Shown here piece after piece: positions 2,933-21,903 of a stretch of DNA of 21,903 bases. Made by a program: the position numbers and the translations under genes. The stretch is taken from UHGV virus genome UHGV-0149790; one strand, written 5' to 3'. How positions within the stretch are numbered: the stretch's first letter is position 1; every line of letters begins with the position of its first letter. Source of the stretch: a virus. The notes under the pieces are model-generated. The model was given only the letters and a program-made list of their open reading frames with translations. It was not told where the DNA came from and searched no databases.

Positions 2933-3379
2933 TTAAACGCTGGTCAGGCGCTGTGTTTCTCGCATAGCTTGCAATGCTCTGGCGACTTGCTGCGGCCCGT
3001 CTCTGGCGTCGAGTAACAACGCGATAATCGCCGCGGCAAACTCGCGAATGGCCACACAAATTAAATACTGAGTGGACATACCCAAGCGCGCGTAACGTTC
3101 TGCCGGCAGCGCCGCTTCCATCGCTTTGACCAGCGCCAGAGTTTTGGCTCTCGCGGCTTTGGTCTCGCCTCGCAACCAACGAAAAATTTGTTGGCGGTTG
3201 TTGTTGATTGCCCGCCAGTCGGCGTTTCCATCTGCATCTTCGATCTGGTGCAGCTTCAGCGAACCGGTATTACCACCAAGACGAAACCACATGCGGCTTA
3301 TCTCGATAGCAACCAGCTCCTGCCCGCTTTCCGCTGCCCAGTTAAAGATCTCTCGTTTAAGTTCTTCGAGGTATTCCAC
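2933..3379 (-). CDS. CII-position regulatory protein, possibly YdaT-family
   Basis: 148-aa helical ORF directly downstream of the Cro-like gene; GTG start at 3379 with AGGAGA 9 nt upstream. Family assignment is from recalled similarity only. Confidence 0.5.
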   Translation of the reverse strand: MEYLEELKREIFNWAAESGQELVAIEISRMWFRLGGNTGSLKLHQIEDADGNADWRAINNNRQQIFRWLRGETKAARAKTLALVKAMEAALPAERYARLGMSTQYLICVAIREFAAAIIALLLDARDGPQQVARALQAMRETQRLTSV

Positions 3380-3441: not shown

Positions 3442-3636
3442 TTAAGCTGATTTGGCTGGCAGTTGGTAAGCCTTTGGGTCATAAACAAGTTCGCCATCAG
3501 TCATCAGAGACAAACGAGCCGCTTTACCTTCAGGAACCAAACGCCCCCACGCATAGACAGTAGGAGCCTTAACGCCAGCGGCCTCAGCCAGTTTTCTCTT
3601 ACTACCAAAATATTTGATCGCATCAGTTGTTAACAT
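3442..3636 (-). CDS. Cro-like HTH regulator (DicC/YdaS type)
   Basis: 64-aa ORF (YFGSKRKLAEAAGV...LVPEGKAARL...GELVYDPKAY) divergent from the repressor gene; AGGAGG RBS; promoter and operators immediately upstream. Confidence 0.75.
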   Translation of the reverse strand: MLTTDAIKYFGSKRKLAEAAGVKAPTVYAWGRLVPEGKAARLSLMTDGELVYDPKAYQLPAKSA

Positions 3637-3716: not shown

Positions 3717-4103
3717 ATGACAATGCCAGGTGAGCGCATCAGAGCGCGTAGAAAAGATCTCAAACTTACTCAGCGCGCTTTAGCGAAGCTGGTTAACGTC
3801 GCGCACGTCACTATCTCCCAGTGGGAGACCGGTGATAGTGAGCCTGGCGGAAAAAACCTTTTCGCTTTAAGTAACGCACTTCAATGCAGCCCTACCTGGA
3901 TACTTTACGGCGATGAAGCCGCCACTCCGGGAACCCCGGTAGACACCCCGCCGCCATTAGATGAACGAGAAACAGAGCTTTTAAAACTCTTTTCGTCACT
4001 CCCAGAATCTGAAAAAGAGCGGCATTTAACGGAACTTCGCGAAAAAGTAGACGGTTTCAATCGTTTATTTGAGGAGTTACTGCAAGCCCGCAAACAAAAA
4101 TAA
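3717..4103 (+). CDS. short HTH-XRE prophage repressor (DicA-like; no peptidase S24 domain)
   Basis: 128 aa; N-terminal HTH (GERIRARRKDLKLTQRALAKL...ISQWETGDSEPGGKNLFALSNALQCSPTWILYGDE) closely resembles recalled DicA; no Ala-Gly/Ser-Lys autocleavage module; divergent from the Cro-like gene. Confidence 0.85.
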   Translation: MTMPGERIRARRKDLKLTQRALAKLVNVAHVTISQWETGDSEPGGKNLFALSNALQCSPTWILYGDEAATPGTPVDTPPPLDERETELLKLFSSLPESEKERHLTELREKVDGFNRLFEELLQARKQK

Positions 4104-4168
4104 TCCCTTTCTAATCAGTTAGATGCATTTTTTTACGCCCATTGTGTTCGTTTTCTCTAATTTAATCA

Positions 4169-4197
4169 TTGACCAAATTGTTAGATTTATCTAAATT
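4169..4197 (+). promoter_or_regulatory. pL-like promoter with an embedded operator
   Basis: -35 TTGACC (4169-4174), 17-bp spacer, -10 TAAATT (4192-4197); third operator copy TTAGATTTATCTAA at 4181-4194 lies in the spacer/-10. Confidence 0.5.
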
Positions 4198-4348
4198 ACA
4201 TCACATCAACGACGCACTAACCACGCGGCAGTTGTTCAGAAACAGTTCTGACAGTCCGGAAAGACGGGCGCGAATTCTTCGGGTCGCCGACAGTACGATG
4301 ACATGCGGGAAAGACCGCAACGAATGCGAATTGCTGTGTGTAGTCTTG

Positions 4349-4373
4349 GCCCGGGCGCCCCGGGCATTTTTTT
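4349..4373 (+). terminator. intrinsic terminator about 150 nt downstream of the pL-like promoter
   Basis: Perfect 7-bp GC stem GCCCGGG-cgc-CCCGGGC (4349-4365) followed by a run of seven T (4367-4373). Confidence 0.7.
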
Positions 4374-4454
4374 AAAGCATTCACGCAGTAACGAGGAAAG
4401 ACCAATGGGGCTGACCACCCTGACAGCCGGGAAAGACCGGCAACCTTCAGGCGT

Positions 4455-4476
4455 AAAAAAGCCCACCGAAGTGGGC
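4455..4476 (-). terminator. intrinsic terminator on the minus strand, convergent with the plus-strand terminator
   Basis: GCCCAC-cgaa-GTGGGC hairpin (4461-4476) flanked by AAAAAA at 4455-4460, i.e. a T-run after the stem when read on the minus strand. Confidence 0.5.
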
Positions 4477-4597
4477 TAATTTACCCGGGACAGTGACCAA
4501 ACCGCCCAGAATGCTACAGGGGACCAACCCTGTAGCGAGGAAAGACCAACGACAGAGCCGCTGATCGGCTCTGAGTATATATCATCAAGGAGTCGCT

Positions 4598-4921
4598 ATG
4601 GAAGCGCTTACCATCCCCGTAACTATTTACGTTATGGCCACAACCAACCCATATCTACCAACGTCTTATCACTCATTCACCTGTGACATGTCACAGCAAT
4701 ACCCTGATCTGTATGTCCTCGTTACTACCAAAACGGTAGAGGTTGCCATTCCAGCTTTAGAGCCAATCGACATTATTGGTATGCAGGTTAATGCCCTTCG
4801 TGCGAAGAAAGAGAAAATCTCTGCCGAAGCAAAGAAGGAGCTGGGTGTTATTGAAGACCAGATTCAGCAGCTGCTGTGCATCGATCACTCTCCAATTGAA
4901 GAAAGCGACGTACCGTTTTAA
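4598..4921 (+). CDS. hypothetical protein, first gene of the left operon
   Basis: 107-aa ORF with AAGGAG RBS 6 nt upstream; acidic and not arginine-rich, so not N-like. Confidence 0.6.
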   Translation: MEALTIPVTIYVMATTNPYLPTSYHSFTCDMSQQYPDLYVLVTTKTVEVAIPALEPIDIIGMQVNALRAKKEKISAEAKKELGVIEDQIQQLLCIDHSPIEESDVPF

Positions 4922-4965
4922 TTAACCGGCGCGTGACCTGCGCCAGTAACCAAGAGGAAAGACCA

Positions 4966-7164
4966 ATGACCATCTACAACGGCTCATTTGAGCCAAAGAA
5001 ATCGGCGATTAAAGACTGCGGCGCCGTGCAGCTGGCGATCGCCATCGATGCGCCAAACAAAAAAGTGGCCGAAAGCATTATGACCGGCAAACTCTGGGAA
5101 TCATACCCGGCCAATGGTGACAACTATTTCAAACCGAAACTGTGGGAACACGTTGAAGGCCAGCCGCTGCCGACCGTTGGCCAGTTCGATGAGTCATTCG
5201 CCCAGCAGCATACTTTTGACGGTGAAAAATGGGTTTCTACTGCGCAGGATAGCGCTTCCGGAAGTGGTGCAGGTTTACCTGCCGACGATGAAGTGATCGA
5301 CCTGATGACCGTTTCCCCTGATGAACGCTTTGCTGCCGTCCTGCTTTTTAGTACCGCGGCGATTGATGGCCATCTTTATTCTCAGGTTGTGGATTATCTG
5401 GATAATCTGAAAAACCACGATGGGGAATTTGAAGAGGAAGATCGCTTTAACTTTAATGTTCTGTGTGCCCTGCAAAATAACTTCCCGGTTCAAAGCATGC
5501 ATGTGGAAGGTCTGAACAATCTTATTCAGGGTATTTTCTCCCACTTTGAAAACCAGACGCCGGGCAAAGCGGCTATCTCTCAGTTCGTTAAACGCTGGCT
5601 TGAGAATCCGGGCAAGCGCGACGAACTGGCCCCCGGCGTATATAAAAATACCGCTCTCAGCACCAGCACCAGCACCAGCACCAGCACCAGCACCAGCACC
5701 AGCACCAGCACCAGCACCGATGATAAAACACCCGTGGTAATTTCTAAGCGCGGATATAAACACACTTATGCAACGCTGGATCAGGAGATCGCTACCGCCC
5801 TTCTCCCGCTGGCGCCTGATGCGCCGGTACTATCCGGAAACCTTCTGGACGCTAAGAAGATGATTTCCGATGACCGGGAAGATTTTAAACGCTGGTCAGC
5901 ATCGCTGCACACCACGCCGCAGATACTCAAATACGACCGCGCCAGCATCTTCGGCGTGGTACAAAACGTACCGGCGAAAGATACCTACCATTTCCCTGAC
6001 AGCCTGCGCCGCCATATCGATTCATGGCTGGCGGCCAACGGCCGCTTTGAGGAAACCGAGACAGGATCCGTTAAACAACCAGAGGCGACGCAAAATACCG
6101 CCTCAAACGTGGGCGAAAAAGTGGAAGCGCAGCAGCCGGTTGTAACCGACACCCAGGCCAAACAGGCGCGTGAGACGCTCAATGATATGGGTTATGGCGT
6201 ATATGCCTCTGGTGAAGGTGCAGAGCCGGAAGAGAAGTTAAGCGTTAAGGCTGAAAAACTGGCTGATGATTCCGAGCGTTTAGCAAAACAAATCGCTCAC
6301 GCTGAAAGCCTGCCTAACGCTGAGGATGTTGTGCAGGCTGTCGGAAAACCAATCATCGGGGAAGACAATTTAGACCTCTGGAAACGCGTATTTAAAACCG
6401 ACGAAAGGTTTACTAAGGCTTTCACACAGAACGGCGGTGGCACCTCGATCAACGGTACCTACATGACCATGCTTGCCACACGTGAGTTTGGCCCTAAGGG
6501 CATCGGCTGGGGCGTGGATATTGTTGAAGAGCGTTTCGATATTGGCGCGCCGATCACTCGGCAAGTAAAAGGCAAAGACAACAACGCATCGTGGGAGCTG
6601 GTTCTTGATGGGAATGGTAATACCGTCAACGAACAGCACCATGTTGTGACTGTCCGGCTCTGGTACATCCTGAACGGAGTACGAGGTGAGGAAACAGCAT
6701 ACGGCTGTACACCCTACATTTACGGTAGTAAATACGGGATCACCTGCGACGGCGAAGCAGCCAAAAAATCACTGACAGATGCGACCAAAAAAGCGTTATC
6801 CGGCCTCGGATTCAGTGGCGATATCTTTATGGGGCTTTACGACAATCTGGAGTACCGCCAGAAGAACAAGGCCGAGTTTGACCTGAAGAACGCCAGCGAA
6901 TCAGCCGAAGATGCAGCACGGCTCCGCCAGGAGTTTGACGATAAATTAAGCCGCGTTGCTAATACCCTGGCGCATGGCGTGACGGTGAACGAAATCAACG
7001 GTGTGTTTTCCCCTATCGCACGTGAGATCGATGTTCACATTAAAGCCGCCCAGGCCAACGGCGACACGCAGCATGAACGTTATCTGTCTGGCCGGCTCCG
7101 CCGACTCATCTCCATCAAAGATGGGCGCATTAAAGAACTGAATAAAGCCGAGGAGAAAGCATAA
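4966..7164 (+). CDS. large recombination protein: N-terminal region of unknown function, (Ser-Thr)10 linker, C-terminal Rad52-like single-strand annealing domain
   Basis: ATG at 4966 preceded by GAGGAAAGACCA; C-terminal motif GCTPYIYGSKYGITCDGEAAKKSLTDATKKALSGLGFSGDIFMGLYD matches the Rad52/Sak signature (K-x-A-V-T-D-x-x-K-R-A-L-x-x-F-G); 733 aa from this start. Confidence 0.7.
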   Translation: MTIYNGSFEPKKSAIKDCGAVQLAIAIDAPNKKVAESIMTGKLWESYPANGDNYFKPKLWEHVEGQPLPTVGQFDESFAQQHTFDGEKWVSTAQDSASGSGAGLPADDEVIDLMTVSPDERFAAVLLFSTAAIDGHLYSQVVDYLDNLKNHDGEFEEEDRFNFNVLCALQNNFPVQSMHVEGLNNLIQGIFSHFENQTPGKAAISQFVKRWLENPGKRDELAPGVYKNTALSTSTSTSTSTSTSTSTSTSTDDKTPVVISKRGYKHTYATLDQEIATALLPLAPDAPVLSGNLLDAKKMISDDREDFKRWSASLHTTPQILKYDRASIFGVVQNVPAKDTYHFPDSLRRHIDSWLAANGRFEETETGSVKQPEATQNTASNVGEKVEAQQPVVTDTQAKQARETLNDMGYGVYASGEGAEPEEKLSVKAEKLADDSERLAKQIAHAESLPNAEDVVQAVGKPIIGEDNLDLWKRVFKTDERFTKAFTQNGGGTSINGTYMTMLATREFGPKGIGWGVDIVEERFDIGAPITRQVKGKDNNASWELVLDGNGNTVNEQHHVVTVRLWYILNGVRGEETAYGCTPYIYGSKYGITCDGEAAKKSLTDATKKALSGLGFSGDIFMGLYDNLEYRQKNKAEFDLKNASESAEDAARLRQEFDDKLSRVANTLAHGVTVNEINGVFSPIAREIDVHIKAAQANGDTQHERYLSGRLRRLISIKDGRIKELNKAEEKA
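5659..5718. repeat. perfect hexanucleotide tandem repeat (AGCACC)x10 encoding (Ser-Thr)10
   Basis: Ten uninterrupted AGCACC units read directly in the sequence, in frame within the 4966..7164 CDS. Confidence 0.95.
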
Positions 7165-7966: not shown

Positions 7967-8191
7967 ATGCTACGTTGGCAACCAGGCACACTTTTACTTT
8001 CAGATTTCGATATCAAAATTGGCAGGCTATCAGCCAGCGTTAGAAAGAGGACTCTGACCCAGTCCGATATCCAACGCGCTTGCGATACGGCAGACAACGC
8101 GATAGCCGGCATGCTGAGGAAAGACCATGAGACACGATCACGACATCATCACCAGAGAGGAAATGATCGAACTGACGGGGACCCCACTTAA
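7967..8191 (+). CDS. hypothetical small basic protein
   Basis: 74-aa ORF whose ATG sits in the 3' arm of an 11-bp perfect inverted repeat; overlaps the excisionase-like ORF in another frame; weak support. Confidence 0.3.
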   Translation: MLRWQPGTLLLSDFDIKIGRLSASVRKRTLTQSDIQRACDTADNAIAGMLRKDHETRSRHHHQRGNDRTDGDPT

Positions 8192-8372
8192 ATCGAGGCA
8201 GTGTGAAGCGCTACGTCGGGCCGGTGTCTTTTTCATGGAAAGGGCAGACGGCCATCCTAAAACGACGTGGGGCCATTTCCTGAACCCGATTAAATACCGC
8301 AACCAGCAGGAAGAGACGGTGCGGGAGGAAGAACCAGACTTCGGAGCTATCTTTAATGGCCGGAAAACGTAA
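8127..8372 (+). CDS. excisionase-like DNA-binding protein
   Basis: 81-aa ORF immediately upstream of and overlapping the integrase start; the ITREEMIELTG...ALRRAGVFF segment fits small winged-helix excisionases; positional support. Confidence 0.5.
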   Translation: MRHDHDIITREEMIELTGTPLKSRQCEALRRAGVFFMERADGHPKTTWGHFLNPIKYRNQQEETVREEEPDFGAIFNGRKT

Positions 8373-9372
8373 GAACCCCGCTGATAACTGGATGCCGCCC
8401 CGCGTGTATCGCGGTAAGGCGGCGTATGAATTCAGGAATAAAGATAACAAGGCTATCAGGCTATGTGCGCTCTCCGAGCCTCAATCAGCTGTATGGCTGG
8501 CATATGAAAAAGCCATGGGAGAAGAAGTCGAGCGCAAGACGTTTCAGGCTCTGGCCGATCAATTCATGTCTTCCCCTGACTGGCAGGATTTAGCGGCAGA
8601 AACCCGAAAAGACTACACGAAATACGCAGGCAAAGTGTTGCCGGTGTTCGGGAAGGTTAACCCCGATAAAATTAAACCGGAACACATCCGGCGCTATATG
8701 GATCAGCGTGGCATGGCCAGTAAAACGCAGGCCAACCGGGAAAAGAGTTTTCTTTCTCGGGTATTCCGCTGGGGTTATGAGCGGGGTTACGTCCAGCATA
8801 ATCCCTGTCAGGGCGTTAAGAAGTTCAAAGAGGCAGCCCGGGAGCGTTACATCACCGACGAAGAATACAAAGCGGTTTACGATGTTGCTCCAGACGTAGT
8901 TCGCGCCACCATGGAAATCGCTTATTTGTGTCTGGCCAGACAAAGCGATGTGCTGGCTTTGACTGAAGACCAGATACGCGAAACCGGGATCTTTATCCGC
9001 CAGGGGAAAACAGGCGTGAAGCAAATCAAAGCATGGTCGCCACGCCTGCGCGCCGCTGTCGCCCTCGCCCGTTCCCTGCCGTTAAAGCCGGGTATCCGTA
9101 GCCTGTTTGTCATTCACCAGACCAGCGGCAGCAAATACACCCGTGACGGTTTTAATTCACGCTGGCGCGACGCGAAAATCGCAGCGCAGGAAAAGAACCC
9201 ACACCTGCAGATAGATTTCACTTTCCACGATCTGAAAGCGAAAGGTGTCTCTGATCTGGAAGGAAGCCTCGAGGAGAAACAGGCGATTTCAGGCCATAAG
9301 AATTCGAGACAAACGGCGATTTACGACAGGAAAACTAAAATTGTGCCGGTTGTTGGTGGTCAGAAAAAATGA
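8356..9372 (+). CDS. int: tyrosine site-specific integrase (lambda Int family)
   Basis: 338 aa; C-terminal catalytic region with HDLKAKGVSD, GHKNSRQTAIY and the terminal Tyr; 3' end faces the att core 120 bp away. Confidence 0.9.
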   Translation: MAGKRKNPADNWMPPRVYRGKAAYEFRNKDNKAIRLCALSEPQSAVWLAYEKAMGEEVERKTFQALADQFMSSPDWQDLAAETRKDYTKYAGKVLPVFGKVNPDKIKPEHIRRYMDQRGMASKTQANREKSFLSRVFRWGYERGYVQHNPCQGVKKFKEAARERYITDEEYKAVYDVAPDVVRATMEIAYLCLARQSDVLALTEDQIRETGIFIRQGKTGVKQIKAWSPRLRAAVALARSLPLKPGIRSLFVIHQTSGSKYTRDGFNSRWRDAKIAAQEKNPHLQIDFTFHDLKAKGVSDLEGSLEEKQAISGHKNSRQTAIYDRKTKIVPVVGGQKK

Positions 9373-9433
9373 ATCGCTATGCGTTCGTTGAAAAATCATC
9401 TTCGGACGCATCTTCGGAAAGGAGAGTTTCAGA

Positions 9434-9458
9434 TACAAAAAAACCACCCGTAGGTGGT
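9434..9458 (-). terminator. intrinsic terminator between int and the att core, strongest on the minus strand
   Basis: AACCACC-cgta-GGTGGTT stem (9441-9458) preceded by AAAAAAA (9434-9440), a T7 run after the hairpin on the minus strand. Confidence 0.55.
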
Positions 9459-9492
9459 TTCACGACACTGCTTATTGCTTTGATTATTCTGC

Positions 9493-9548
9493 TTTATCCC
9501 AATGGTACCCGGAGCGGGACTTGAACCCGCACAGCGCGAACGCCGAGG
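9493..9548 (-). other. att core: 56-nt 3'-terminal fragment of tRNA-Leu (anticodon UAA), not an intact tRNA gene
   Basis: Minus strand reads ATTTAAAATCCCTCGGCGTTCGCGCTGTGCGGGTTCAAGTCCCGCTCCGGGTACCA: anticodon loop, long variable arm, T-arm GGTTCAAGTCC, acceptor 3' strand and CCA. The 5' half of the tRNA is absent (sequence diverges at 9549). Confidence 0.75.
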
Positions 9549-9696
9549 GATTTTAAATTGGTGGTGATTATTCTAAATATCAAATAGATATGAAAAAAAT
9601 CCGAACATACGCTAATAAACTAGCATCATGAAAACAATAAGTTACAGCAATGTTTTAGACTATCTTCTGACGCTTATCATACCTCAAATTCAATAT

Positions 9697-9936
9697 TTAT
9701 TCAGTCGCGCGGTACCACGATTGCCAGCGGTAGATATTCGTACGTAACTCCCGCACACACTCTGCTGACTGTGTATCCGCCAGCAGATCAGCGTCGCTAT
9801 CTGCGCCAGCGTTACTTATCTTGCACGGTCGGTTCATCAAATCCGGGGATGGCGTTGGCCGCGTCGATTGCTCGTTGGCGCAGCTGCACAGCAGCAGGAT
9901 CAAACTGGCACACAGTACGATTCGGGTCATTGACAT
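9697..9936 (-). CDS. Rz1-like o-spanin (outer-membrane lipoprotein), overlapping the Rz gene
   Basis: Signal-like N-terminus MSMTRIVLCASLILLLCSCANE with Cys near the cleavage region, Pro-rich mature part; out-of-frame overlap with Rz and extends past it. Confidence 0.5.
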   Translation of the reverse strand: MSMTRIVLCASLILLLCSCANEQSTRPTPSPDLMNRPCKISNAGADSDADLLADTQSAECVRELRTNIYRWQSWYRATE

Positions 9937-10171
9937 ATTTCACCACATCACGATAAACGGTACGGTAAATCACTTTGGCTTCGGCGTTCGCCGTCGCTGC
10001 TTTCTGCTCACCAGCGGCAACTGCCTTTTCCTGCTTCGGTAGCCTTTGTTTAGCCTGGCTGTTTACTTGCTCTGAATGTGCGTACCAGCCTTTCAGATAC
10101 CCCGCCCAGTAAATCCCGGCGCATACCGCCAGCACGCCACCAACAATCACCAGTTTGGTTTTTCCGTTCAT
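9812..10171 (-). CDS. Rz-like i-spanin
   Basis: N-terminal TM segment (KLVIVGGVLAVCAGIYWAGYL) then a charged, Ala/Gln-rich periplasmic domain; ATG at 10171 overlaps the endolysin stop (ATGA). Confidence 0.7.
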   Translation of the reverse strand: MNGKTKLVIVGGVLAVCAGIYWAGYLKGWYAHSEQVNSQAKQRLPKQEKAVAAGEQKAATANAEAKVIYRTVYRDVVKYVNDPNRTVCQFDPAAVQLRQRAIDAANAIPGFDEPTVQDK

Positions 10172-10704
10172 TCGTACAGCCCCCAGCACGTCAAAGCGCT
10201 TTCCTGATCGCGGCGGTCAACCTGCCCGTAGCAGCCATTCTTCTGGCCTTTGGTCAGTCGGCAATCCCGGCCTCCGTCGAACACCCATCGCCGGATCTCC
10301 GCGCATGCACCTTTACGGTCGCCTGCGTTCAGCTTGCGATAGAACGTTGAGGGGAAGCATTTACCCGGCCCGATGTTGTACGGGCAGAATGAGGCTATGC
10401 CGACCTTCTGCGGCGGCGTCAAAGAAACGAGCACATTCTTTTCTACCCAGGCAAGCGCCTTATCACGCTCAATGGCGTTTACCTTCCTGCACTGTTCCTC
10501 AGTTGCTCTTTGGCCCTTAATGACACGCTTGCCATCTATAACGGTTACTCCGTGGCACAATGACCACACACCGCCGGGGTCAACAACGGCCACCAGCGCG
10601 TTACCTTCTTTTTCGCTGATAAACTGATCGAACAGTATCGGTGCAGATGCACCGGCGGCCAGAAGCGCCAGCATAGCGGCGCTGAACTTAGCTTTGTTGC
10701 TCAT
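10168..10704 (-). CDS. SAR endolysin (T4-type lysozyme fold, phage 21 R-like)
   Basis: Start at 10704 ([25 protein letters not shown] = signal-anchor-release segment); catalytic-region pattern E...D...T and C-terminal [14 protein letters not shown]...ALTCWG resemble recalled R21; overlaps the holin 3' end. Confidence 0.85.
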
Positions 10705-10918
10705 AGTCCTGTGCCTTCCGCCGGTCGTCTTTGATTTTGAAGTACAAATTAGTGAGGTAGGTAAGCAGCCCAAAAACAATACTGGCCAGTACGCCAATAG
10801 CCGCCCACTGGCTGGGGCTTACCTTATCGAGAAGTTGCAGCAGCCAGTAGCTCCCGCTGACAGTGGATGTGATGTACGACGTGCCAGCCGCCACATCCGG
10901 TAAATTCTTCATTCGCAT
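10688..10918 (-). CDS. pinholin (class II holin, phage 21 S-like) with dual-start motif
   Basis: 76 aa; ...[43 protein letters not shown] matches recalled S21; starts Met-Arg-Met, the classic antiholin/holin dual start. Confidence 0.85.
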
Positions 10919-10975
10919 GCCTTACCCCCATGGGGATCACTATGTGGAGTGATGCGAGGGTAAGGCGAAGCTAAG

Positions 10976-10989
10976 GTCAGAATCCTGAC
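10976..10989. repeat. 14-bp palindrome GTCAGAATCCTGAC (copy 1 of 2)
   Basis: Perfect inverted repeat 57 nt upstream of the holin start on the minus strand, at the edge of an AT-rich island. Confidence 0.6.
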
Positions 10990-11000
10990 TAAATGAAATT

Positions 11001-11270
11001 CTATATTTGGAGTTTTCTTTTAAGTGATTCCTCTGCCTCTTCAAGAGGGCTTCCTGACCCAGAATACACAAAAGAATGGGTAAGCTCCCCACAGGAAAGA
11101 CAACCATCAATGCTAACTTTAAATGAAACAGTCGCTGTTCCATTATTTAGCGATATTAACGATACAGCCTGGTATTCAACTTCAATCGATGTATCTTCTG
11201 ATGGCATCCATACACCTAGCGTTGGATATGCTATAGATTTTCCTATGGTCTGCGTCACTCTGAAAGTCAT
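11001..11270 (-). CDS. hypothetical protein in an AT-rich island between tailspike and holin
   Basis: ATG at 11270 with GAGG 5 nt upstream, overlapping the tailspike stop; 89 aa, beta-rich; a plus-strand ORF (10993..11283) covers the same DNA, so strand is uncertain. Confidence 0.35.
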   Translation of the reverse strand: MTFRVTQTIGKSIAYPTLGVWMPSEDTSIEVEYQAVSLISLNNGTATVSFKVSIDGCLSCGELTHSFVYSGSGSPLEEAEESLKRKLQI

Positions 11271-11277
11271 ATTAGCC

Positions 11278-13797
11278 TCATGAATTAAAAGGAACAACAT
11301 AATCAAAAGTACACTGGAGAGTAAAATCAAAAGTACCAGCTGCTTGAGAATATATTTCTTGGGCTGACGATTTTATAATCGTCATTTGATTTGTCCCTGC
11401 AGGAACAAGCGGCATAACAAAAACTCCTGTAGCCGTGCTTAGAATTATGCTTCCTTTAGACCCACCCTCCTGTATTGAGGCGGCTGTAAAAGGAAGACCA
11501 CTAATGACTATGGCTCCCGCAGTACTAACCAGTAAAGAGGTTGATCTGACTCTTATATCGCAACGAACAACATCACCAAACCTACGGTAAATTCCAGTAA
11601 TGGATGATGGCGTTACGCTTGCCCCGCCAATTGTAATAGTTGGTGTGAATGAGCCATAAAGATACTTAAACTGAGCAGCATTACCACCGGGAAAAGCTAT
11701 TGGCGGCATATAGGCATCATTTCGATTAAAAACATACTTATCGGATAAATTTGTTCCGTTTAACTCCTGAAGACCGAAAAGACGATAGTTTGAATTATCT
11801 CCAAGCTTTCTTTGAGCAACTATATTCTCACCGGCACCGATTCTTGTGCCGTTAAATTCATTAACTGGGGCAGCCTGAACCGCGCCACCTTTTACAATAT
11901 CAAGGGCGAAAATATTTCCTCTTGTTGCCATCGCTGGAAATGTTGAAAGAGATGGTTCGTAGGGATCAACATTATTAACATTAAATCTATTTCCAGCAAC
12001 ATCACCAAGGCCATACTTGATGATTCCTACCCTTTCCAGTATAAGAGTCCTTATTTTACTGTTACCAACATATGATTTAAATCCGTCAACGAATTGAGCA
12101 GAGTGGTAGAATGGCGTTCTTGGAGACCACAGCACTTTAGCCTCACCAATATTGCAATGCAATATCTCCCTTCCCGGAAGTGAAATAATAGTTCTTGCGC
12201 GCCCAGCTATACCTCTATAGGTATCAACTGGGTAAACCCCATTCTGCTGATTATTTGACAACCGACCACCGCTGGCCGTAGGCAAGCAGTTTGCAGACTT
12301 GAAAACATACGTATCAAACCAAGTGTCAAGAGCGGCATATGCTGGATGTGTCCAGTCCATGCCGGTATCACCATAATAATGAAACTTGTCTACATGGTAC
12401 GAATCATTCCATCCCGCCCGATGAATATCTGATGCCGGGTACGGCGGAAGGTACTGAGACGCGTATGCATGATTTCTCGTTAGCCAGCGCCCGCCAAAAA
12501 CAGGGCCTGTAATATTATACCAATATAATGTCAGCCCAGTTTGCGCCAGAGAATCAGATCCTTGATAACAAGCAGGAATGGCACACCCTGAGTACATCAT
12601 ATTATTTTCTACACAGCGGTTTACAGTCCCGTCTACCCATTGCCCAATAAAGAATCCGCTAATCCTGAAATCAGAAAGGTGATACTTTATGTATTGATCT
12701 GGTCCGCTGTCACCTGCGATGTATAGACCCATGGAAGATGTATGATCCCATGGTCCCGCAGTTTTTGAAAAATTACCAATAATCCCACAATTGTGTTGGT
12801 TTTCACCAACAATCATTGAATCATCATAAACACGCAGTGCTGCTTTTGCCTTAACTGGTATTTCAGGAGCAATATTTGAATCACCGTTCCCTATCCACCC
12901 TGGGTATACAGTCCCATCGTCGAATGGCAAATTAAACTCTATCGGTGAAGATATGCACGGATACATTTTAGTTAAATATACCGGAAGGTTATTAGCTTTT
13001 CCGTAATCTATAGCTGCCTGTAGAAATTTAGTTGCATCAGCAGTGATGCCGTGAATATATCTTTCACCATTAATCCTTATCATTTCAGGGGTTACGTATT
13101 TTATTGCATCTTCAACGGTGCCTCCAGTAAGAACCCCTATATGCCCGCTACCTGTCGGTTTGGCATACTCAATCATTACATCTGCTGCACTTCCACTCGA
13201 AGGCAATACCATCAATGGATTGCCATTATTATCCATTGCAACGATTTTATTTTTTCGTTCTGCAATGGAAGGTAACGGTGTGATGCTAGACTCCGGAACG
13301 CGTAGAGTACGAGCTAGATTAATTTTTCCATTTTCAATTACAAATTTTTTAGTAGCTGCATCCTGATCGTTAACTGGATCGGCCAGATTTGCTATCCGGT
13401 AGCCGTTAGCGTTGAAAGGTCCACCGCCGAACAGCGGGCGACTTAGGGCCACTCCGAGATAAATAAACGCGCGCTGAGTAGCCATCCAGAGACGGTCAAA
13501 ATCTTTGTTAACTGTATCGGCCAGCAGGTCGCCGTTGTCCTGGTAATCAGTGAGCCTGTAAGTCGGCGTTACACGTTCAAAAATGACTGTAGCGCCATTG
13601 GCCGGCGCGGTCAGAAAAGTAACTTCGCCACCGCCAGTATTACCCACACCAGACACTGTATAGCCGGACGTTACTTCGTTGCCGTTGATTGTGACCTGAA
13701 TATCGCTGGCGCTGATCAGGTAAAACTCATAGGCAAAGACAGTCGTCAGCCCGTTGGCGGTATAGATGTTATAGGGTGTCTGGTTCGGTACCGACAT
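11278..13797 (-). CDS. tailspike / tail fibre with T7 gp17-like N-terminal adaptor domain and probable beta-helix depolymerase body
   Basis: 839 aa; N-terminal approx. 150 aa (...NANGYRIANLADPVNDQDAATKKFV) parallel recalled T7 gp17 (...RGRRIVNLANAVDDRDAVPFGQL); Gly/Asn/Ser/Thr-rich repetitive body typical of polysaccharide depolymerases. Confidence 0.8.
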   Translation of the reverse strand: MSVPNQTPYNIYTANGLTTVFAYEFYLISASDIQVTINGNEVTSGYTVSGVGNTGGGEVTFLTAPANGATVIFERVTPTYRLTDYQDNGDLLADTVNKDFDRLWMATQRAFIYLGVALSRPLFGGGPFNANGYRIANLADPVNDQDAATKKFVIENGKINLARTLRVPESSITPLPSIAERKNKIVAMDNNGNPLMVLPSSGSAADVMIEYAKPTGSGHIGVLTGGTVEDAIKYVTPEMIRINGERYIHGITADATKFLQAAIDYGKANNLPVYLTKMYPCISSPIEFNLPFDDGTVYPGWIGNGDSNIAPEIPVKAKAALRVYDDSMIVGENQHNCGIIGNFSKTAGPWDHTSSMGLYIAGDSGPDQYIKYHLSDFRISGFFIGQWVDGTVNRCVENNMMYSGCAIPACYQGSDSLAQTGLTLYWYNITGPVFGGRWLTRNHAYASQYLPPYPASDIHRAGWNDSYHVDKFHYYGDTGMDWTHPAYAALDTWFDTYVFKSANCLPTASGGRLSNNQQNGVYPVDTYRGIAGRARTIISLPGREILHCNIGEAKVLWSPRTPFYHSAQFVDGFKSYVGNSKIRTLILERVGIIKYGLGDVAGNRFNVNNVDPYEPSLSTFPAMATRGNIFALDIVKGGAVQAAPVNEFNGTRIGAGENIVAQRKLGDNSNYRLFGLQELNGTNLSDKYVFNRNDAYMPPIAFPGGNAAQFKYLYGSFTPTITIGGASVTPSSITGIYRRFGDVVRCDIRVRSTSLLVSTAGAIVISGLPFTAASIQEGGSKGSIILSTATGVFVMPLVPAGTNQMTIIKSSAQEIYSQAAGTFDFTLQCTFDYVVPFNS

Positions 13798-13814
13798 ACG
13801 AGGAACTCCGGCGG

Positions 13815-15425
13815 CTAGTAATCTACGGCGACCATGTGATCGCCATCATTTGGTTGCCAATGTTCCCGCGCCTGTGCGGTCGGAATCCCGACCAATTTAC
13901 CAATGCGCACTGGTGTTGAGCTGATTGCGCCAGAGCCAGAGTCGATAAAGTCATCTGGCTGATTAGTCAGCGCCGGGTTAAAGTCGCGCATCTGGTCATA
14001 CATTGGGCCGTCGAGCACGTCGGTATGCGCCCAGAGGAAGCGCGACGACAGCGGCGCTTCGAATGCATCGAGGATGCGCTTTTGTTTATTGGTCACGCTG
14101 AATTCTTCCCGTACGCCGCAGCCGGTACCCTTTAGTGCCTGAATCAGCAATTTCCCGGCAAAGCTGCCCGGGCCGTTCACCTCGACGCAGACCAGCGGGA
14201 TCTGGTATTTAAGCACCAGCTCTTTAATCTGCATCACCTGACCGCCGGTGATTTTGTCGTTGTCGTCGAATTCCGCCAGTTCGCCCGTAAGCCCCTGGCA
14301 AACATGCCAGTACAGATGCCCGCGTGCGTCGGTGAAAATCAGAGAGAACGCCGAGGCGTCGGCCTTAACTTTGCCGGTGGCCACATCCCACCAGGCAACA
14401 GCACCAACAATTTGCGTCTGGCCAAGCCACATCGAGCAGGAGCGGTTCGCGTACCGGATTTCAGGCTGTACGTTGTATTCGCGTATGCGGTCGGGATCGA
14501 GACGAACCTCGCCAACCGGTTTACTGTGCAGCTGGTACTGGCTGTCCCATTCGTTAATTGTGCGAGTCTCGCGACGGCGCTTTGTCATTTCCTCCGGAGT
14601 GAACCTTTCTGGCCATTCACAATCGGCGTAACAGTCAACCGTGGTGCCGGGAGCCTCGGCAAACTCGATACCGTCATCGTTAAGACGATAATCAACACCT
14701 TCAACGAGCAGTCGCGCGCCAATGTGAATACCGACGAAAACATATTCCGGCCGGAACGGTAACGAGTAACGGCTCGCGGTGGCCTGTTTTTCCTCGATTC
14801 TAAATTCTTTACCGAATAGTTTGATGGTCAGACAGTCGGCGCCCATAGATTCAACCTCATCGTAAAGGCTATCGTGGGTATGCGGCGTGCCGATAAACAG
14901 CTTTCGCCCGCCGGGGACAAGAATGTGTGTCTGTTCACCGAGACGATAACGCAGCTTTTCCCGCGCCTCTGGCGTCTGGATATTGCGGGGTACTTCTACG
15001 TCATCGTTCTGGCATTCATCAGCGCGGGCCGAGGTAACGTTAGAGAGGATCCCCTTTGCGTACATGCTGCCGTTACGCATATCCAGAGAGCCGTTAACCC
15101 ACCACTGTTCAACGGTTCCCTGTCCGTCCGGTAGCATGCCTTTGGTCAGTGGGTGATTGCGTAAAACGTTCTGCGTATCGCGGCTGGTTTTGTACGCGGT
15201 GCCGTCAGCTTCAGACTGGTGAAGAATGCGGTACTGGCGGTTCTGGTAATATCGCCATGCGTTATACACCGCCAGAATGGTAGATTTACCAAAGCCACGA
15301 AAACAGCGAAGCACCGCGAGATCCCCGCGGTGTTCCAACCAGTGGCAGGCTCGATAATGGCAGTCGGGAACCTCCCACCCCATCCGCTCCGCCCATATGA
15401 TGAAAAAGGCGACGAATGAAATCAT
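13815..15425 (-). CDS. terminase large subunit, T7 gp19 type
   Basis: 536 aa; CFRGFGKSTI (cf. T7 AFRGIGKSFI) and TSARADECQNDDVEVPRNIQTPEAREKL (cf. T7 [27 protein letters not shown]); start overlaps the upstream stop (ATGA). Confidence 0.9.
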   Translation of the reverse strand: MISFVAFFIIWAERMGWEVPDCHYRACHWLEHRGDLAVLRCFRGFGKSTILAVYNAWRYYQNRQYRILHQSEADGTAYKTSRDTQNVLRNHPLTKGMLPDGQGTVEQWWVNGSLDMRNGSMYAKGILSNVTSARADECQNDDVEVPRNIQTPEAREKLRYRLGEQTHILVPGGRKLFIGTPHTHDSLYDEVESMGADCLTIKLFGKEFRIEEKQATASRYSLPFRPEYVFVGIHIGARLLVEGVDYRLNDDGIEFAEAPGTTVDCYADCEWPERFTPEEMTKRRRETRTINEWDSQYQLHSKPVGEVRLDPDRIREYNVQPEIRYANRSCSMWLGQTQIVGAVAWWDVATGKVKADASAFSLIFTDARGHLYWHVCQGLTGELAEFDDNDKITGGQVMQIKELVLKYQIPLVCVEVNGPGSFAGKLLIQALKGTGCGVREEFSVTNKQKRILDAFEAPLSSRFLWAHTDVLDGPMYDQMRDFNPALTNQPDDFIDSGSGAISSTPVRIGKLVGIPTAQAREHWQPNDGDHMVAVDY

Positions 15426-15763
15426 TTTTTCCGCTGTTGTATGCGTTCGATAACTTCCTGTGCTGCCCGTTCAGCCGCAGATACCTGTTGCCCCAGGCGG
15501 AATGCTTCATCGTCCGGATCCTCGCCGGGTTTAGGCGTCCCCCCGCGCGTATGCATGCCAATCAGCGAATGGACTTTTACCAGCAGCGTCAGCGATGCGG
15601 CCGCGTTCTTCTTATGCCAGTACCGATCACCGCGTTCCTGTTTAGTGTGCTTTGTGATTTCCTTCCCTGCCCCCGGCCAGTTGTCCGGATCGGCTTCTTC
15701 CAGAACTACATCGGTGAGCTTATCGCTAAGAGCAGTAAGGCGAGTTTTGTAATCTGAATGCAT
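15422..15763 (-). CDS. putative terminase small subunit (positional inference)
   Basis: 113-aa ORF translationally coupled to the large terminase gene; no sequence signature recognised. Confidence 0.4.
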   Translation of the reverse strand: MHSDYKTRLTALSDKLTDVVLEEADPDNWPGAGKEITKHTKQERGDRYWHKKNAAASLTLLVKVHSLIGMHTRGGTPKPGEDPDDEAFRLGQQVSAAERAAQEVIERIQQRKK

Positions 15764-15811
15764 AAAAAAGCCCCGTGGTTATCCATAGAGCTATGATGTA
15801 TTCTTTTTGAG

Positions 15812-15825
15812 GTCGGAATCCTGAC
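15812..15825. repeat. 14-bp near-palindrome GTCGGAATCCTGAC (copy 2 of 2)
   Basis: One mismatch to the 10976-10989 copy, with shared flanks GGTC.GAATCCTGACTA; 48 nt upstream of the small-terminase start on the minus strand and 20 nt upstream of the plus-strand moron ORF. Confidence 0.6.
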
Positions 15826-15845
15826 TATCACAAGGAGTAAATAGA

Positions 15846-16364
15846 ATGAAGATATTAATTCCATTGTTGCTAATCTTTCACTTTGCAGCATTCGCATCAA
15901 CCGATTTAGTTGATGACTCTAAATATATCGTTCCTATATCCGGACCAGGAATACAGATTACCAATCCATATACCGACTATACGGTCATTAACGGTATCGA
16001 CACTGGTAAAAAAATTGAGATCCATGTATCGGTATTACACTTGCGAACCTATAAAGAAAACGCAGATTTTAGTGAAACTAATACTCACTATGTGGAAGGA
16101 AGTAAAACCATATCTAGTTACAATGCCAATGTTTACACAGACGATTTTATAAAATTTACATCAGAAGACGCTAAAAATTCAACATTGAAAAATTTAAGGG
16201 ATTTGTATTGTGCACCAGATGGATTTTACCCAGTGTCATCTCAAGAGCGGCTATTCTACGAAACCCGAAAAGAAAATAAAAAAATAATGATCAATTACTA
16301 CAGTGATTCAGGGAAAACCCTCATGTTTGGGTTTGGGGTTTCCCCCGAATCATGTAAGTCGTAA
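15846..16364 (+). CDS. secreted or periplasmic protein of unknown function encoded by an AT-rich moron, opposite in orientation to the late operon
   Basis: 172 aa; AAGGAG RBS 9 nt upstream; signal peptide MKILIPLLLIFHFAAFAS; markedly AT-rich, wedged between two minus-strand late genes. Confidence 0.7.
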   Translation: MKILIPLLLIFHFAAFASTDLVDDSKYIVPISGPGIQITNPYTDYTVINGIDTGKKIEIHVSVLHLRTYKENADFSETNTHYVEGSKTISSYNANVYTDDFIKFTSEDAKNSTLKNLRDLYCAPDGFYPVSSQERLFYETRKENKKIMINYYSDSGKTLMFGFGVSPESCKS

Positions 16365-16367
16365 TAG

Positions 16368-21859: not shown

Positions 21860-21903
21860 TCTTCAATTAGCTTGTGCGCGTCGTTACGCTGAGTCTGCTC
21901 AAT

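Follow-up and report, generated by a model that had tools for sequence, protein, structure and literature searches.

Small RNAs carried by prophages, such as DicF, StxS, AgvB and HnrS, rewire host regulation, and to our knowledge each has so far been treated as an isolated case. Phage immunity regions also encode antisense RNAs, lambda OOP and P22 sar among them, and the boxB hairpin of lambda consists of a 5-bp stem with a GAAGA or GAAAA loop. DicF is cut by RNase E from the transcript of a DicA-repressed operon and ends at its own terminator, through which the operon reads to reach dicB (PMC5069750). In the case of RprA, a product comprising its last 47 nt (RprAproc) persists after RNase E cleavage and is active alone (PMC9262595), and an upstream stem-loop matters for this cleavage (PMC6202311). 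StxS, encoded by a Shiga-toxin phage, is an RNase E-processed by-product of early termination just after a phage promoter, and plugs into the regulon of core small RNAs including RprA (PMC7547250). The present analysis concerns UHGV virus genome UHGV-0149790 (21,903 nucleotides, hereafter the window), a lambdoid phage of the Rac/Qin/Gifsy kind, and specifically the interval 4104-4597 between its repressor gene and the first gene of its left operon. Sequence features, homology, the pattern of conservation, covariation and strand asymmetry point, with a probability of roughly 0.6, to a compact small-RNA locus in the early-left (pL) operon leader of a Rac/Qin-type lambdoid phage. A preliminary description of the interval had located a pL-like promoter, two terminators, a 24-codon open reading frame (ORF) and a set of repeats, all of which are present where it placed them, and had offered several routes to left-operon expression, among which a small RNA fits the present results, two predicted small-RNA genes being found on opposite strands.

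The RprA-type module of the pL leader

On the plus strand, the elements upon which this reading is built are the following.

3717-4103, plus: 128-amino-acid helix-turn-helix repressor, facing the rightward operon
4169-4197, plus: pL-like sigma-70 promoter (TTGACC-17-TAAATT, from a promoter scan)
4181-4194: palindromic operator TTAGATTTATCTAA between the pL hexamers, overlapping the promoter
4204-4326, plus: conserved 5′ leader
4327-4373, plus: RprA-type small-RNA module, the last ~47 nt of the pL RNA, corresponding to processed RprA
4349-4373, plus: intrinsic terminator GCCCGGGCGCCCCGGGC + AU7, with stem 4349-4365 (7-bp GC) and U-run 4367-4373

The sequence CGAAUUGCUGUGUGUAGUCUU (CGAATTGCTGTGTGTAGTCTT as DNA, 4327-4347) aligns with rprA of K-12 at 21 of 21 positions, and the terminator follows. 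In a permissive Rfam scan, a check that the preliminary description had proposed, RprA (RF00034) was the best match in the window (4274-4375, plus strand, 41.6 bits, E=0.0012) and isrB scored 28.7 bits, both below their gathering scores, and no DicF was returned; at gathering thresholds nothing was reported in the window or in five relatives. RprA also ranked first in relatives L003 (46.8 bits) and L005 (35.7 bits). It is the RprAproc part, namely the conserved 3′ seed and the Rho-independent terminator, that is present in the window. The locus thus shares with RprA the 21-nt stretch containing the seed AUUGCUGUGUGUAGUCUU with a Rho-independent terminator directly after it, a short GGAAA-loop hairpin ~10 nt upstream that resembles RprA stem-loop 2, and complementarity to the csgD 5′ untranslated region (5′UTR). 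It differs in lacking the RprA 5′ stem-loop, the Rcs-dependent promoter and the ydiK-ydiL synteny, having a phage early promoter instead, in an 8-nt insertion that separates AACGAAU from UGCUG, and in the sequence of its terminator.

Relatives of the locus were gathered by matching an 18-mer at the beginning of the leader, so that the seed played no part in their selection; most contig matches to this 18-mer were due to chance, and the real ones were found only in Enterobacteriaceae. The 16-mer seed is kept in 105 of ~117 related leaders as TGCTGTGT[G/T]TAGTCTT (90 with the G- and 15 with the T(U)-variant); in these 105, 28 distinct terminator hairpins follow it and 21 distinct 10-mers precede it, and the conserved block opens at (A)UUGCUG, the cleavage point of RprA and 5′ end of RprAproc. 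A constant single-stranded segment amid freely replaced hairpins is what is expected of a base-pairing seed and not of a mere terminator. The distance from leader to seed is 107 nt here; elsewhere it amounts to 267, 360, 404, 429, 600 or 892 nt, owing to intervening genes or structured-looking inserts. Since some natural relatives lack the module or carry other seeds, it is accessory and not essential; ~12 true relatives belong to this group.

As for potential targets, the csgD 5′UTR offers the seed a complementary stretch, ACUACACACAGCAGU, with 15 contiguous pairs, one of them G.U, this being a local comparison, as RNAduplex applied to long sequences gave uninformative whole-length duplexes. 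No site for the RprA-type seed was found at up to three mismatches in the window or the whole genome of phage BUCT709, and its targets are therefore presumably host genes. Transcription from pL is predicted to start at ~4204, and conservation in relatives of other immunity types also begins at ~4204. The operator pattern TTAGAnnnnTCTAA occurs at only three sites in the window (3651, 3701 and 4181), a number reached by none of 100 shuffles. A repressor-controlled transcript starting at ~4204 would meet the intrinsic terminator at 4349-4373, and the 4327-4373 module would be released as a ~45-50 nt Hfq-type small RNA, its 5′ end being made, if the analogy with DicF holds, by RNase E processing of the operon transcript. 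The released RNA would act in trans upon host RprA targets such as the csgD leader, and those polymerases that read through the terminator would express the left operon. Read-through from the repressor gene probably also reaches this terminator; since no terminator is predicted between the repressor stop (4103) and 4349, repressor transcripts may end there as well, and the small RNA may then be a lysogenic product.

Another explanation would have the RprA-like piece as a passenger, a fragment of host rprA acquired by recombination and kept just as a terminator, with no role in trans. Some copies are indeed nearly identical to the host in the terminator too (L009, L063, L113 and Erwinia phage Ea9-2), and the copy in the window scores below the Rfam threshold. 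A terminator, however, needs only a hairpin and a U-run, yet the part preserved here is the single-stranded seed, the hairpins having been exchanged many times over (28 variants within one family and still more elsewhere); the seed has also been grafted onto the unrelated DicF hairpin and recurs in unrelated temperate and lytic phages, so that the passenger explanation seems very unlikely.

The distribution of the seed extends well beyond this family. Among the matches listed, the seed 17-mer is found in at least 120 viral contigs, including 102 places in loci not already reached via the leader 18-mer, and in none of the viral places is it accompanied by the RprA 5′ half. Carriers include E. 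coli phages Rac-SA53, 606R2 and LLS and Citrobacter phage phiNP, with the seed located after the repressor in the three examined (Rac-SA53, 606R2, phiNP), as well as the lytic Erwinia phages Ea9-2/Tellus and Dickeya phages JA11-33. In two of the lytic phages, seed and terminator lie in unannotated intergenic sequence.

L165, 601-650: RprA seed and terminator, Erwinia phage Ea9-2
L166, 601-680: RprA seed and terminator, Dickeya phage JA13

One of these virulent phages is an N4-like member of the Schitoviridae and the other a jumbo phage of 254 kb, and the Ea9-2 copy is directly 3′ of thymidylate synthase. In 5,424 E. coli genomes the 3′ 45-mer of RprA was counted at 6,217 places, ~790 above one per genome.

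A closer relationship emerges with DicF (RF00039), the small RNA of the Qin dicBF operon, to which the preliminary description had pointed. Its pointer holds for position and biogenesis: both loci place a small RNA in a repressor-controlled early-left operon, after a DicA/CI-like repressor and before kil/exonuclease genes (a synteny compared in K-12 Qin and Rac-SA53), with an intrinsic terminator of its own that the operon must read through, and close relatives (Rac-SA53, L212, L176 and others) carry the same RprA-type seed fused to the DicF terminator and DicF 3′ flank. It does not extend to DicF itself, which gave no match in 4000-4700 even at E<=10; neither the DicF seed (UUUCUGGUGACGUUU) nor its terminator is present, the 48 bits set for DicF are not reached, and the window has the RprA-type seed UUGCUGUGUGUAGUCUU on yet another terminator. 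Because the DicF seed is lacking, the predicted targets are those of RprA, and not ftsZ/xylR/pykA. StxS offers a further likeness, as a phage small RNA derived from early termination just downstream of a phage promoter; it originates from the late promoter PR′/tR′ and shares with RprA function but not sequence, whereas the window carries RprA sequence at pL.

A seed-blind census on the DicF 3′ flank (116 places) found ~77 seeds of the DicF type and ~22 of the RprA type, together with a few partial variants and seeds of other kinds, and thus seeds behave as exchangeable alleles on one scaffold. Since Rfam labels an RprA-seed allele as DicF (L212, 61.6 bits), existing ‘DicF’ annotations may mix functionally different RNAs. 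The DicF seed (UUUUCUG-GUGACGUUUGG) and the RprA-type seed (AUUGCUGUGUGUAGUCUUUGG) can be aligned with several shared positions (L272 2083-2135, which is K-12 dicF; L212; L167); a single ancestral module may have diverged into DicF and the RprA 3′ half. Searches of the literature found no phage RprA homologues or DicF seed variants, which is not proof of novelty. The contig of L212 also carries a sok antitoxin RNA (hok/sok, 103.9 bits, 9410-9559) in the same prophage as its DicF-scaffold RprA-seed small RNA.

Many relatives have 260-350 nt of structured-looking non-coding sequence between the second GAAAGA hairpin of the leader and the seed (L005 3100-3425; L001 5205-5480; L003 3125-3445; also L009, L063, L113, L217, L225, L248), and in several of these inserts the seed is immediately preceded by a terminal tRNA-like T-arm (GGTTCGATTCC) with an acceptor-like ...CACCACAA. 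In the relatives examined, ARAGORN found no tRNA or tmRNA despite the T-arm-like GGTTCGATTCC, and tRNA-Sec reached only 19.9 bits; the tRNA-like element might direct tRNA-type processing that frees the small RNA 5′ end. Another class of phage copies (L179, L181, L234, L247, L255) keeps CCAUCCCCUGAAUCAUCCA directly before the seed and thereby retains AUCCCCUGA of RprA stem-loop 2, a part used for pairing with rpoS and hdeD.

A predicted antisense RNA and its shared motif

Downstream of the plus-strand terminator, the convergent minus-strand terminator closes a second structured element.

4455-4570, minus: predicted antisense small RNA, ~113 nt, with a predicted 5′ end at ~4567
4574-4579, minus: -10 hexamer TATACT (AGTATA on plus), putative promoter of the antisense RNA
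4549-4537, minus: 13-mer UUGGUCUUUCCUC complementary to the translation-initiation region (TIR) motif, in the 5′ part of the RNA
4536-4513, minus: stem-loop 1, UUGGUC loop
4509-4484, minus: stem-loop 2, UUGGUC loop
4477-4460, minus: terminator, U-run to ~4455

The segment 4453-4545 of the minus strand consists of the two UUGGUC hairpins and the terminator, and folds with z=-6.2 (also z=-6.0). Among 22 distinct relatives, 98.2% of the cells in the alignment are paired and nine of 18 pairs show double changes, a covariation score reached by none of 500 shuffles, and slid registers fall to ~47% paired. In 67 unique relatives the loops (GACCAA on the plus strand) are essentially constant, with few single-base variants, while the stems change; the same set of variants has TATACT or TATAAT throughout as the -10 hexamer, with neighboring bases varying. 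G.U pairs make up 73 of 388 cells in the antisense stems, and would be A.C mismatches if read on the plus strand. The minus strand also folds better in 66 of 67 variants (-50.1 vs -41.4 kcal/mol), and by these two measures the selected structure is that of the minus-strand RNA. A covariance model (R1) built for it scores 118 bits here and also finds more distant loci, with further copies beside RprA-type seeds outside the family.

A close described counterpart is IsrB (RF01386) of Salmonella Gifsy-1/-2, which is likewise antisense in orientation and ~90 nt long and which lies in the left operon immediately before the RecE-like exonuclease region; it too has a hairpin loop containing UUUGGUC and, after it, a GCCCAC...GUGGGC terminator. 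With default filters the antisense model found no match at the Gifsy IsrB locus, and with filters off its best local match in 1.3 kb fell on IsrB-2 (L123 6313-6422, minus) with a weak 12.5 bits, E=0.02. Being below threshold in both directions (28.7 vs 35, and 12.5 bits), the RNA was not filed as IsrB. A further difference is that both the GGAAAGACC TIR motif and the anti-TIR 13-mer are missing from Gifsy-1, so the proposal that follows is not transferable to IsrB.

This proposal rests on a ribosome-binding motif shared by early genes. Its core GGAAAGACC has eight exact copies in the window, always co-directional with transcription, four of them inside 4104-4597, and 16 matches at one mismatch, against 4.4 expected and with none of 100 shuffles reaching 16.

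4954-4968, plus: TIR GAGGAAAGACCAATG of the RecE-like exonuclease gene
8116-8129, plus: TIR of the DUF4224 gene
2924-2910, minus: TIR of the small gene after the cII/YdaT-like gene
284-270, minus: TIR of the gene after dnaB
4393-4441, plus: pseudo-cassette with a GAGGAAAGACCAATG copy (4393-4407), a CUGACCA-loop hairpin (4408-4420) and GAAAGA hairpin 3 (4426-4441)
4537-4549, plus: pseudo-TIR 2 (GAGGAAAGACCAA), without a start codon (AAC GAC next), template of the anti-TIR 13-mer
4405-4479, plus: 24-codon ORF behind GAGGAAAGACCAATG (4393-4407)

As GAGGAAAGACC(A)ATG the motif is near-identical in four early genes of both divergent operons, the same four genes carry it in BUCT709 and in E. coli prophages, and no late gene of the window or of BUCT709 has it. 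The antisense 13-mer UUGGUCUUUCCUC is complementary to the TIR GAGGAAAGACCAAUG of these four genes, which makes the exonuclease, DUF4224, post-cII/YdaT and post-dnaB initiation regions its predicted targets in trans. Lambda OOP and P22 sar are likewise short terminator-ended RNAs transcribed against an early operon; what the RNA of the window adds is a 13-mer matching a motif of four genes in both early operons, and this match suggests multi-target action in trans. The antisense RNA would accordingly be expected, on complementarity, to damp the left-operon leader in cis and the four early genes in trans. Three of the four TIRs are preceded by a small hairpin with a (C/G)UGACC(A/U) loop.

The two pseudo-TIRs bear upon a different explanation, in which they and the adjacent hairpins are what is left of small-gene cassettes that a variable ‘moron’ array has lost, now serving only as recombination linkers, with antisense complementarity as a by-product. 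Consistent with this, the number of units varies (3-9 copies per leader of the 8-mer GGAAAGAC, described below), some relatives have one unit more or fewer of the pseudo-cassette, real genes occur at such TIRs or after hairpin 1 in L006, L009/L049 and L081, and pseudo-TIR 1 is polymorphic (ATG/ACG/AAG). Neutral remnants would decay, however, and the sequence of pseudo-TIR 2 hardly changes across 67 unique variants, although it starts no conserved ORF: its 13-mer GAGGAAAGACCAA (4537-4549) shows single-base variants in ~6 of 67, and it continues as AACGA in 67 loci and AATGC in 38. Moreover, the adjacent hairpins covary in a strand-specific manner, with G.U on the minus strand only, and the minus-strand -10 is invariant. 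We therefore regard the cassette explanation as unlikely and retain that of a small-RNA locus. In L006 (2500-3000) and L081 a small plus-strand gene and a convergent ORF-sized stretch lie right after the first leader hairpin, so that the leader accepts additional genes as well. The plus strand of 4376-4600 folds with z=-5.2 relative to shuffles.

Also located in the pseudo-cassette is the start of the 24-codon ORF, for which a leader-peptide attenuator had been considered, translation of the ORF controlling the downstream hairpin. Its TIR motif is perfect and it ends inside the 4460-4477 hairpin, but the start codon is ATG in just 28 of ~110 related loci (ACG in 22), peptides readable at this position range over 2-50 amino acids in shifting frames, PHROG gives no match, and the hairpin is the minus-strand terminator, with its U-run on the other strand. 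Because start and peptide vary among relatives, the ORF is not a conserved coding gene; the attenuator, now extremely improbable, was rejected on this ground. A leader peptide does not stand in for the missing N gene, and the terminator at 4349-4373 belongs to the predicted small-RNA gene, as in Qin.

Several observations count against a locus of two functional small RNAs. For the plus-strand module, the score of 41.6 bits is short of the RprA gathering score of 70, RprA stem-loop 1 (its 5′ half) does not align and the RprA promoter is missing. L054, L106 and L111 are without the module and L110 and L024 have other seeds, and the U-variant of the seed found in E. coli is mismatched to csgD at one position. 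In the minimum-energy fold the seed is paired with the 5′ leader (z only -2.2), so that the primary transcript may be inactive; covariation speaks neither for nor against this helix, which is shorter in the E. coli type. On the minus strand, the antisense promoter has no good -35 and is not listed by a consensus promoter scan, UUGGUC is sequestered in the minimum-energy structure of the long form, where UUUCCUC alone stays unpaired, and the isrB match (4456-4540, minus, E=0.0043) is below the gathering score of 35. Finally, for both RNAs we infer expression, transcript ends, Hfq binding, processing and targets from sequence.

Hairpins of the 5′ leader

The leader upstream of the module contains several small hairpins, and its conservation is extensive, 4204-4315 being ~80-85% identical in 453 of 5,426 complete E. 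coli genomes.

4236-4251, plus: stem-loop UCAGAA/UUCUGA
4254-4269, plus: GAAAGA-loop hairpin 1
~4266-4288, plus: central GC hairpin
4305-4318, plus: GAAAGA-loop hairpin 2, aligned by Rfam with RprA stem-loop 2
4426-4441, plus: GAAAGA-loop hairpin 3, in the pseudo-cassette downstream of the module

What had been described as decayed direct repeats at 4248-4268, 4420-4440 and 4307-4317 is present at these positions and corresponds to small hairpins with covarying stems. In relatives, the stem of hairpin 1 covaries (CCG/CGG, CUG/CAG, GUGG/CCAC, AUUCG/CGAAU) around an invariant GAAAGA loop, and each GAAAGA hairpin is preceded by (C/A)UGACA(G/U). The loop and its closing pair form the 8-mer GGAAAGAC, which is also part of the TIR motif. 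These hairpins could be protein sites, an RNase E recognition duplex, or antisense decoys; in the last case, the pL leader would present the antisense RNA with five possible decoys, its GGAAAGAC(C) copies.

Alternatively, the hairpins may be regulatory sites acting in cis, either bound by a phage or host protein in the manner of boxB or acting upon RNA polymerase like the put sites of HK022, so as to carry pL transcription through 4349-4373. Such a function could coexist with the small-RNA reading. The resemblance to lambda N/nut and HK022 put lies in the position of conserved stem-loops directly after pL and ahead of a terminator, and in the short GC stem and purine-rich loop reminiscent of boxB. 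Further points in favor of this reading are the three hairpins, whose 4-5 bp stems covary and whose hexaloop does not change, each behind a conserved 5′ flank, the conservation of the leader across immunity types and the 453 E. coli genomes, and a strong terminator directly downstream with no internal promoter predicted. On the other hand, the loop is of six nt, hairpin 3 lies downstream of the terminator it would suppress, no equivalent hairpin is found in the rightward operon, and recurrence of the 8-mer in ribosome-binding sites is not explained by a nut-like model. No boxA (YGCUCUUUA-like) was detected at one mismatch or less within 4204-4597. The window also has no free-standing ORF for an N-like arginine-rich motif (ARM) protein, in agreement with the preliminary description, as Arg-rich ORFs occur only as out-of-frame overlaps inside real genes. 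Finally, Qin dicBF reads through the DicF terminator with no dedicated system having been described. Taken together, these points leave an antitermination role doubtful. An Arg/Lys-rich ORF of 49 codons (RRKRKSLPKQRR..., 4776-4925, plus) lies out of frame in the 107-amino-acid gene, with an identical counterpart in BUCT709; most likely it merely results from the real frame being rich in Lys and Glu, and is not an N-like gene.

Combining the two RNAs of the small-RNA locus, we tentatively propose, as a possibility well short of an established case, that temperate and virulent enterobacterial phages carry a portable seed cassette, copied from RprA, on varied scaffolds including DicF, where it is one of several interchangeable seeds, and by which they would take over the host RprA regulon (csgD, envelope stress, RpoS) in lysogeny or lytic growth. 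In the same leader, the antisense RNA would gate four early genes via one motif, with the leader copies of that motif serving as decoys that set the induction threshold. The RprA recognition sequence occurs in hundreds of phage genomes and in about one in seven complete E. coli genomes, and phage copies have remained unannotated because each is either below the Rfam threshold or called ‘DicF’. If such copies are active, strains would vary with their prophage content in the phenotypes that depend on RprA (curli/biofilm, plasmid transfer, RpoS, envelope stress), alleles of distinct function would go unrecognized under the name ‘DicF’, and the DicF locus would constitute a natural system of modular seed exchange on a fixed small-RNA scaffold. 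The antisense RNA, for its part, would give a testable function to an IsrB-like RNA and an example of one small RNA addressing several genes via a shared translation-initiation motif.

Genome context

The locus follows the order repressor (3717-4103), pL (4169-4197), terminator (4349-4373) and exonuclease operon, with the following genes around it.

3442-3636, minus: P22-Cro-like gene, rightward operon
2933-3379, minus: cII/YdaT-like gene, rightward operon
1696-2688, minus: 330-amino-acid ORF, rightward operon, matching a gene annotated RepO in relatives
311-1699, minus: 462-amino-acid ORF, rightward operon, matching the replicative DNA helicase gene (dnaB) of relatives
4598-4921: 107-amino-acid acidic protein, function not known, first left-operon gene (phrog_2479)
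4966-7164, plus: RecE-like exonuclease gene, left operon

The names RepO and dnaB for the two ORFs derive from position and annotation in relatives only; neither the 330-amino-acid ORF (1696-2688) nor the first left-operon gene (4598-4921) has a Pfam match. The left operon further holds Gp157/Gam-like, DUF4224 and integrase genes. Related prophages are found in E. coli (the above 453 of 5,426 complete genomes), Enterobacter, Citrobacter, Raoultella and Pseudescherichia, and in relatives the 0.5-1.5 kb interval from the repressor to the 107-amino-acid gene is unannotated or carries only doubtful small coding sequences. The closest complete phage, BUCT708/709, is deposited as a ‘Stenotrophomonas’ phage, all other relatives coming from Enterobacteriaceae. 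The integrase gene (8356-9372) is followed by lysis and structural genes on the minus strand (9400-21903 of the window), including a T7-type large terminase at 13815-15425, minus strand; with the integrase directly before the lysis and structural genes, the window therefore represents a phage genome in its unintegrated order.

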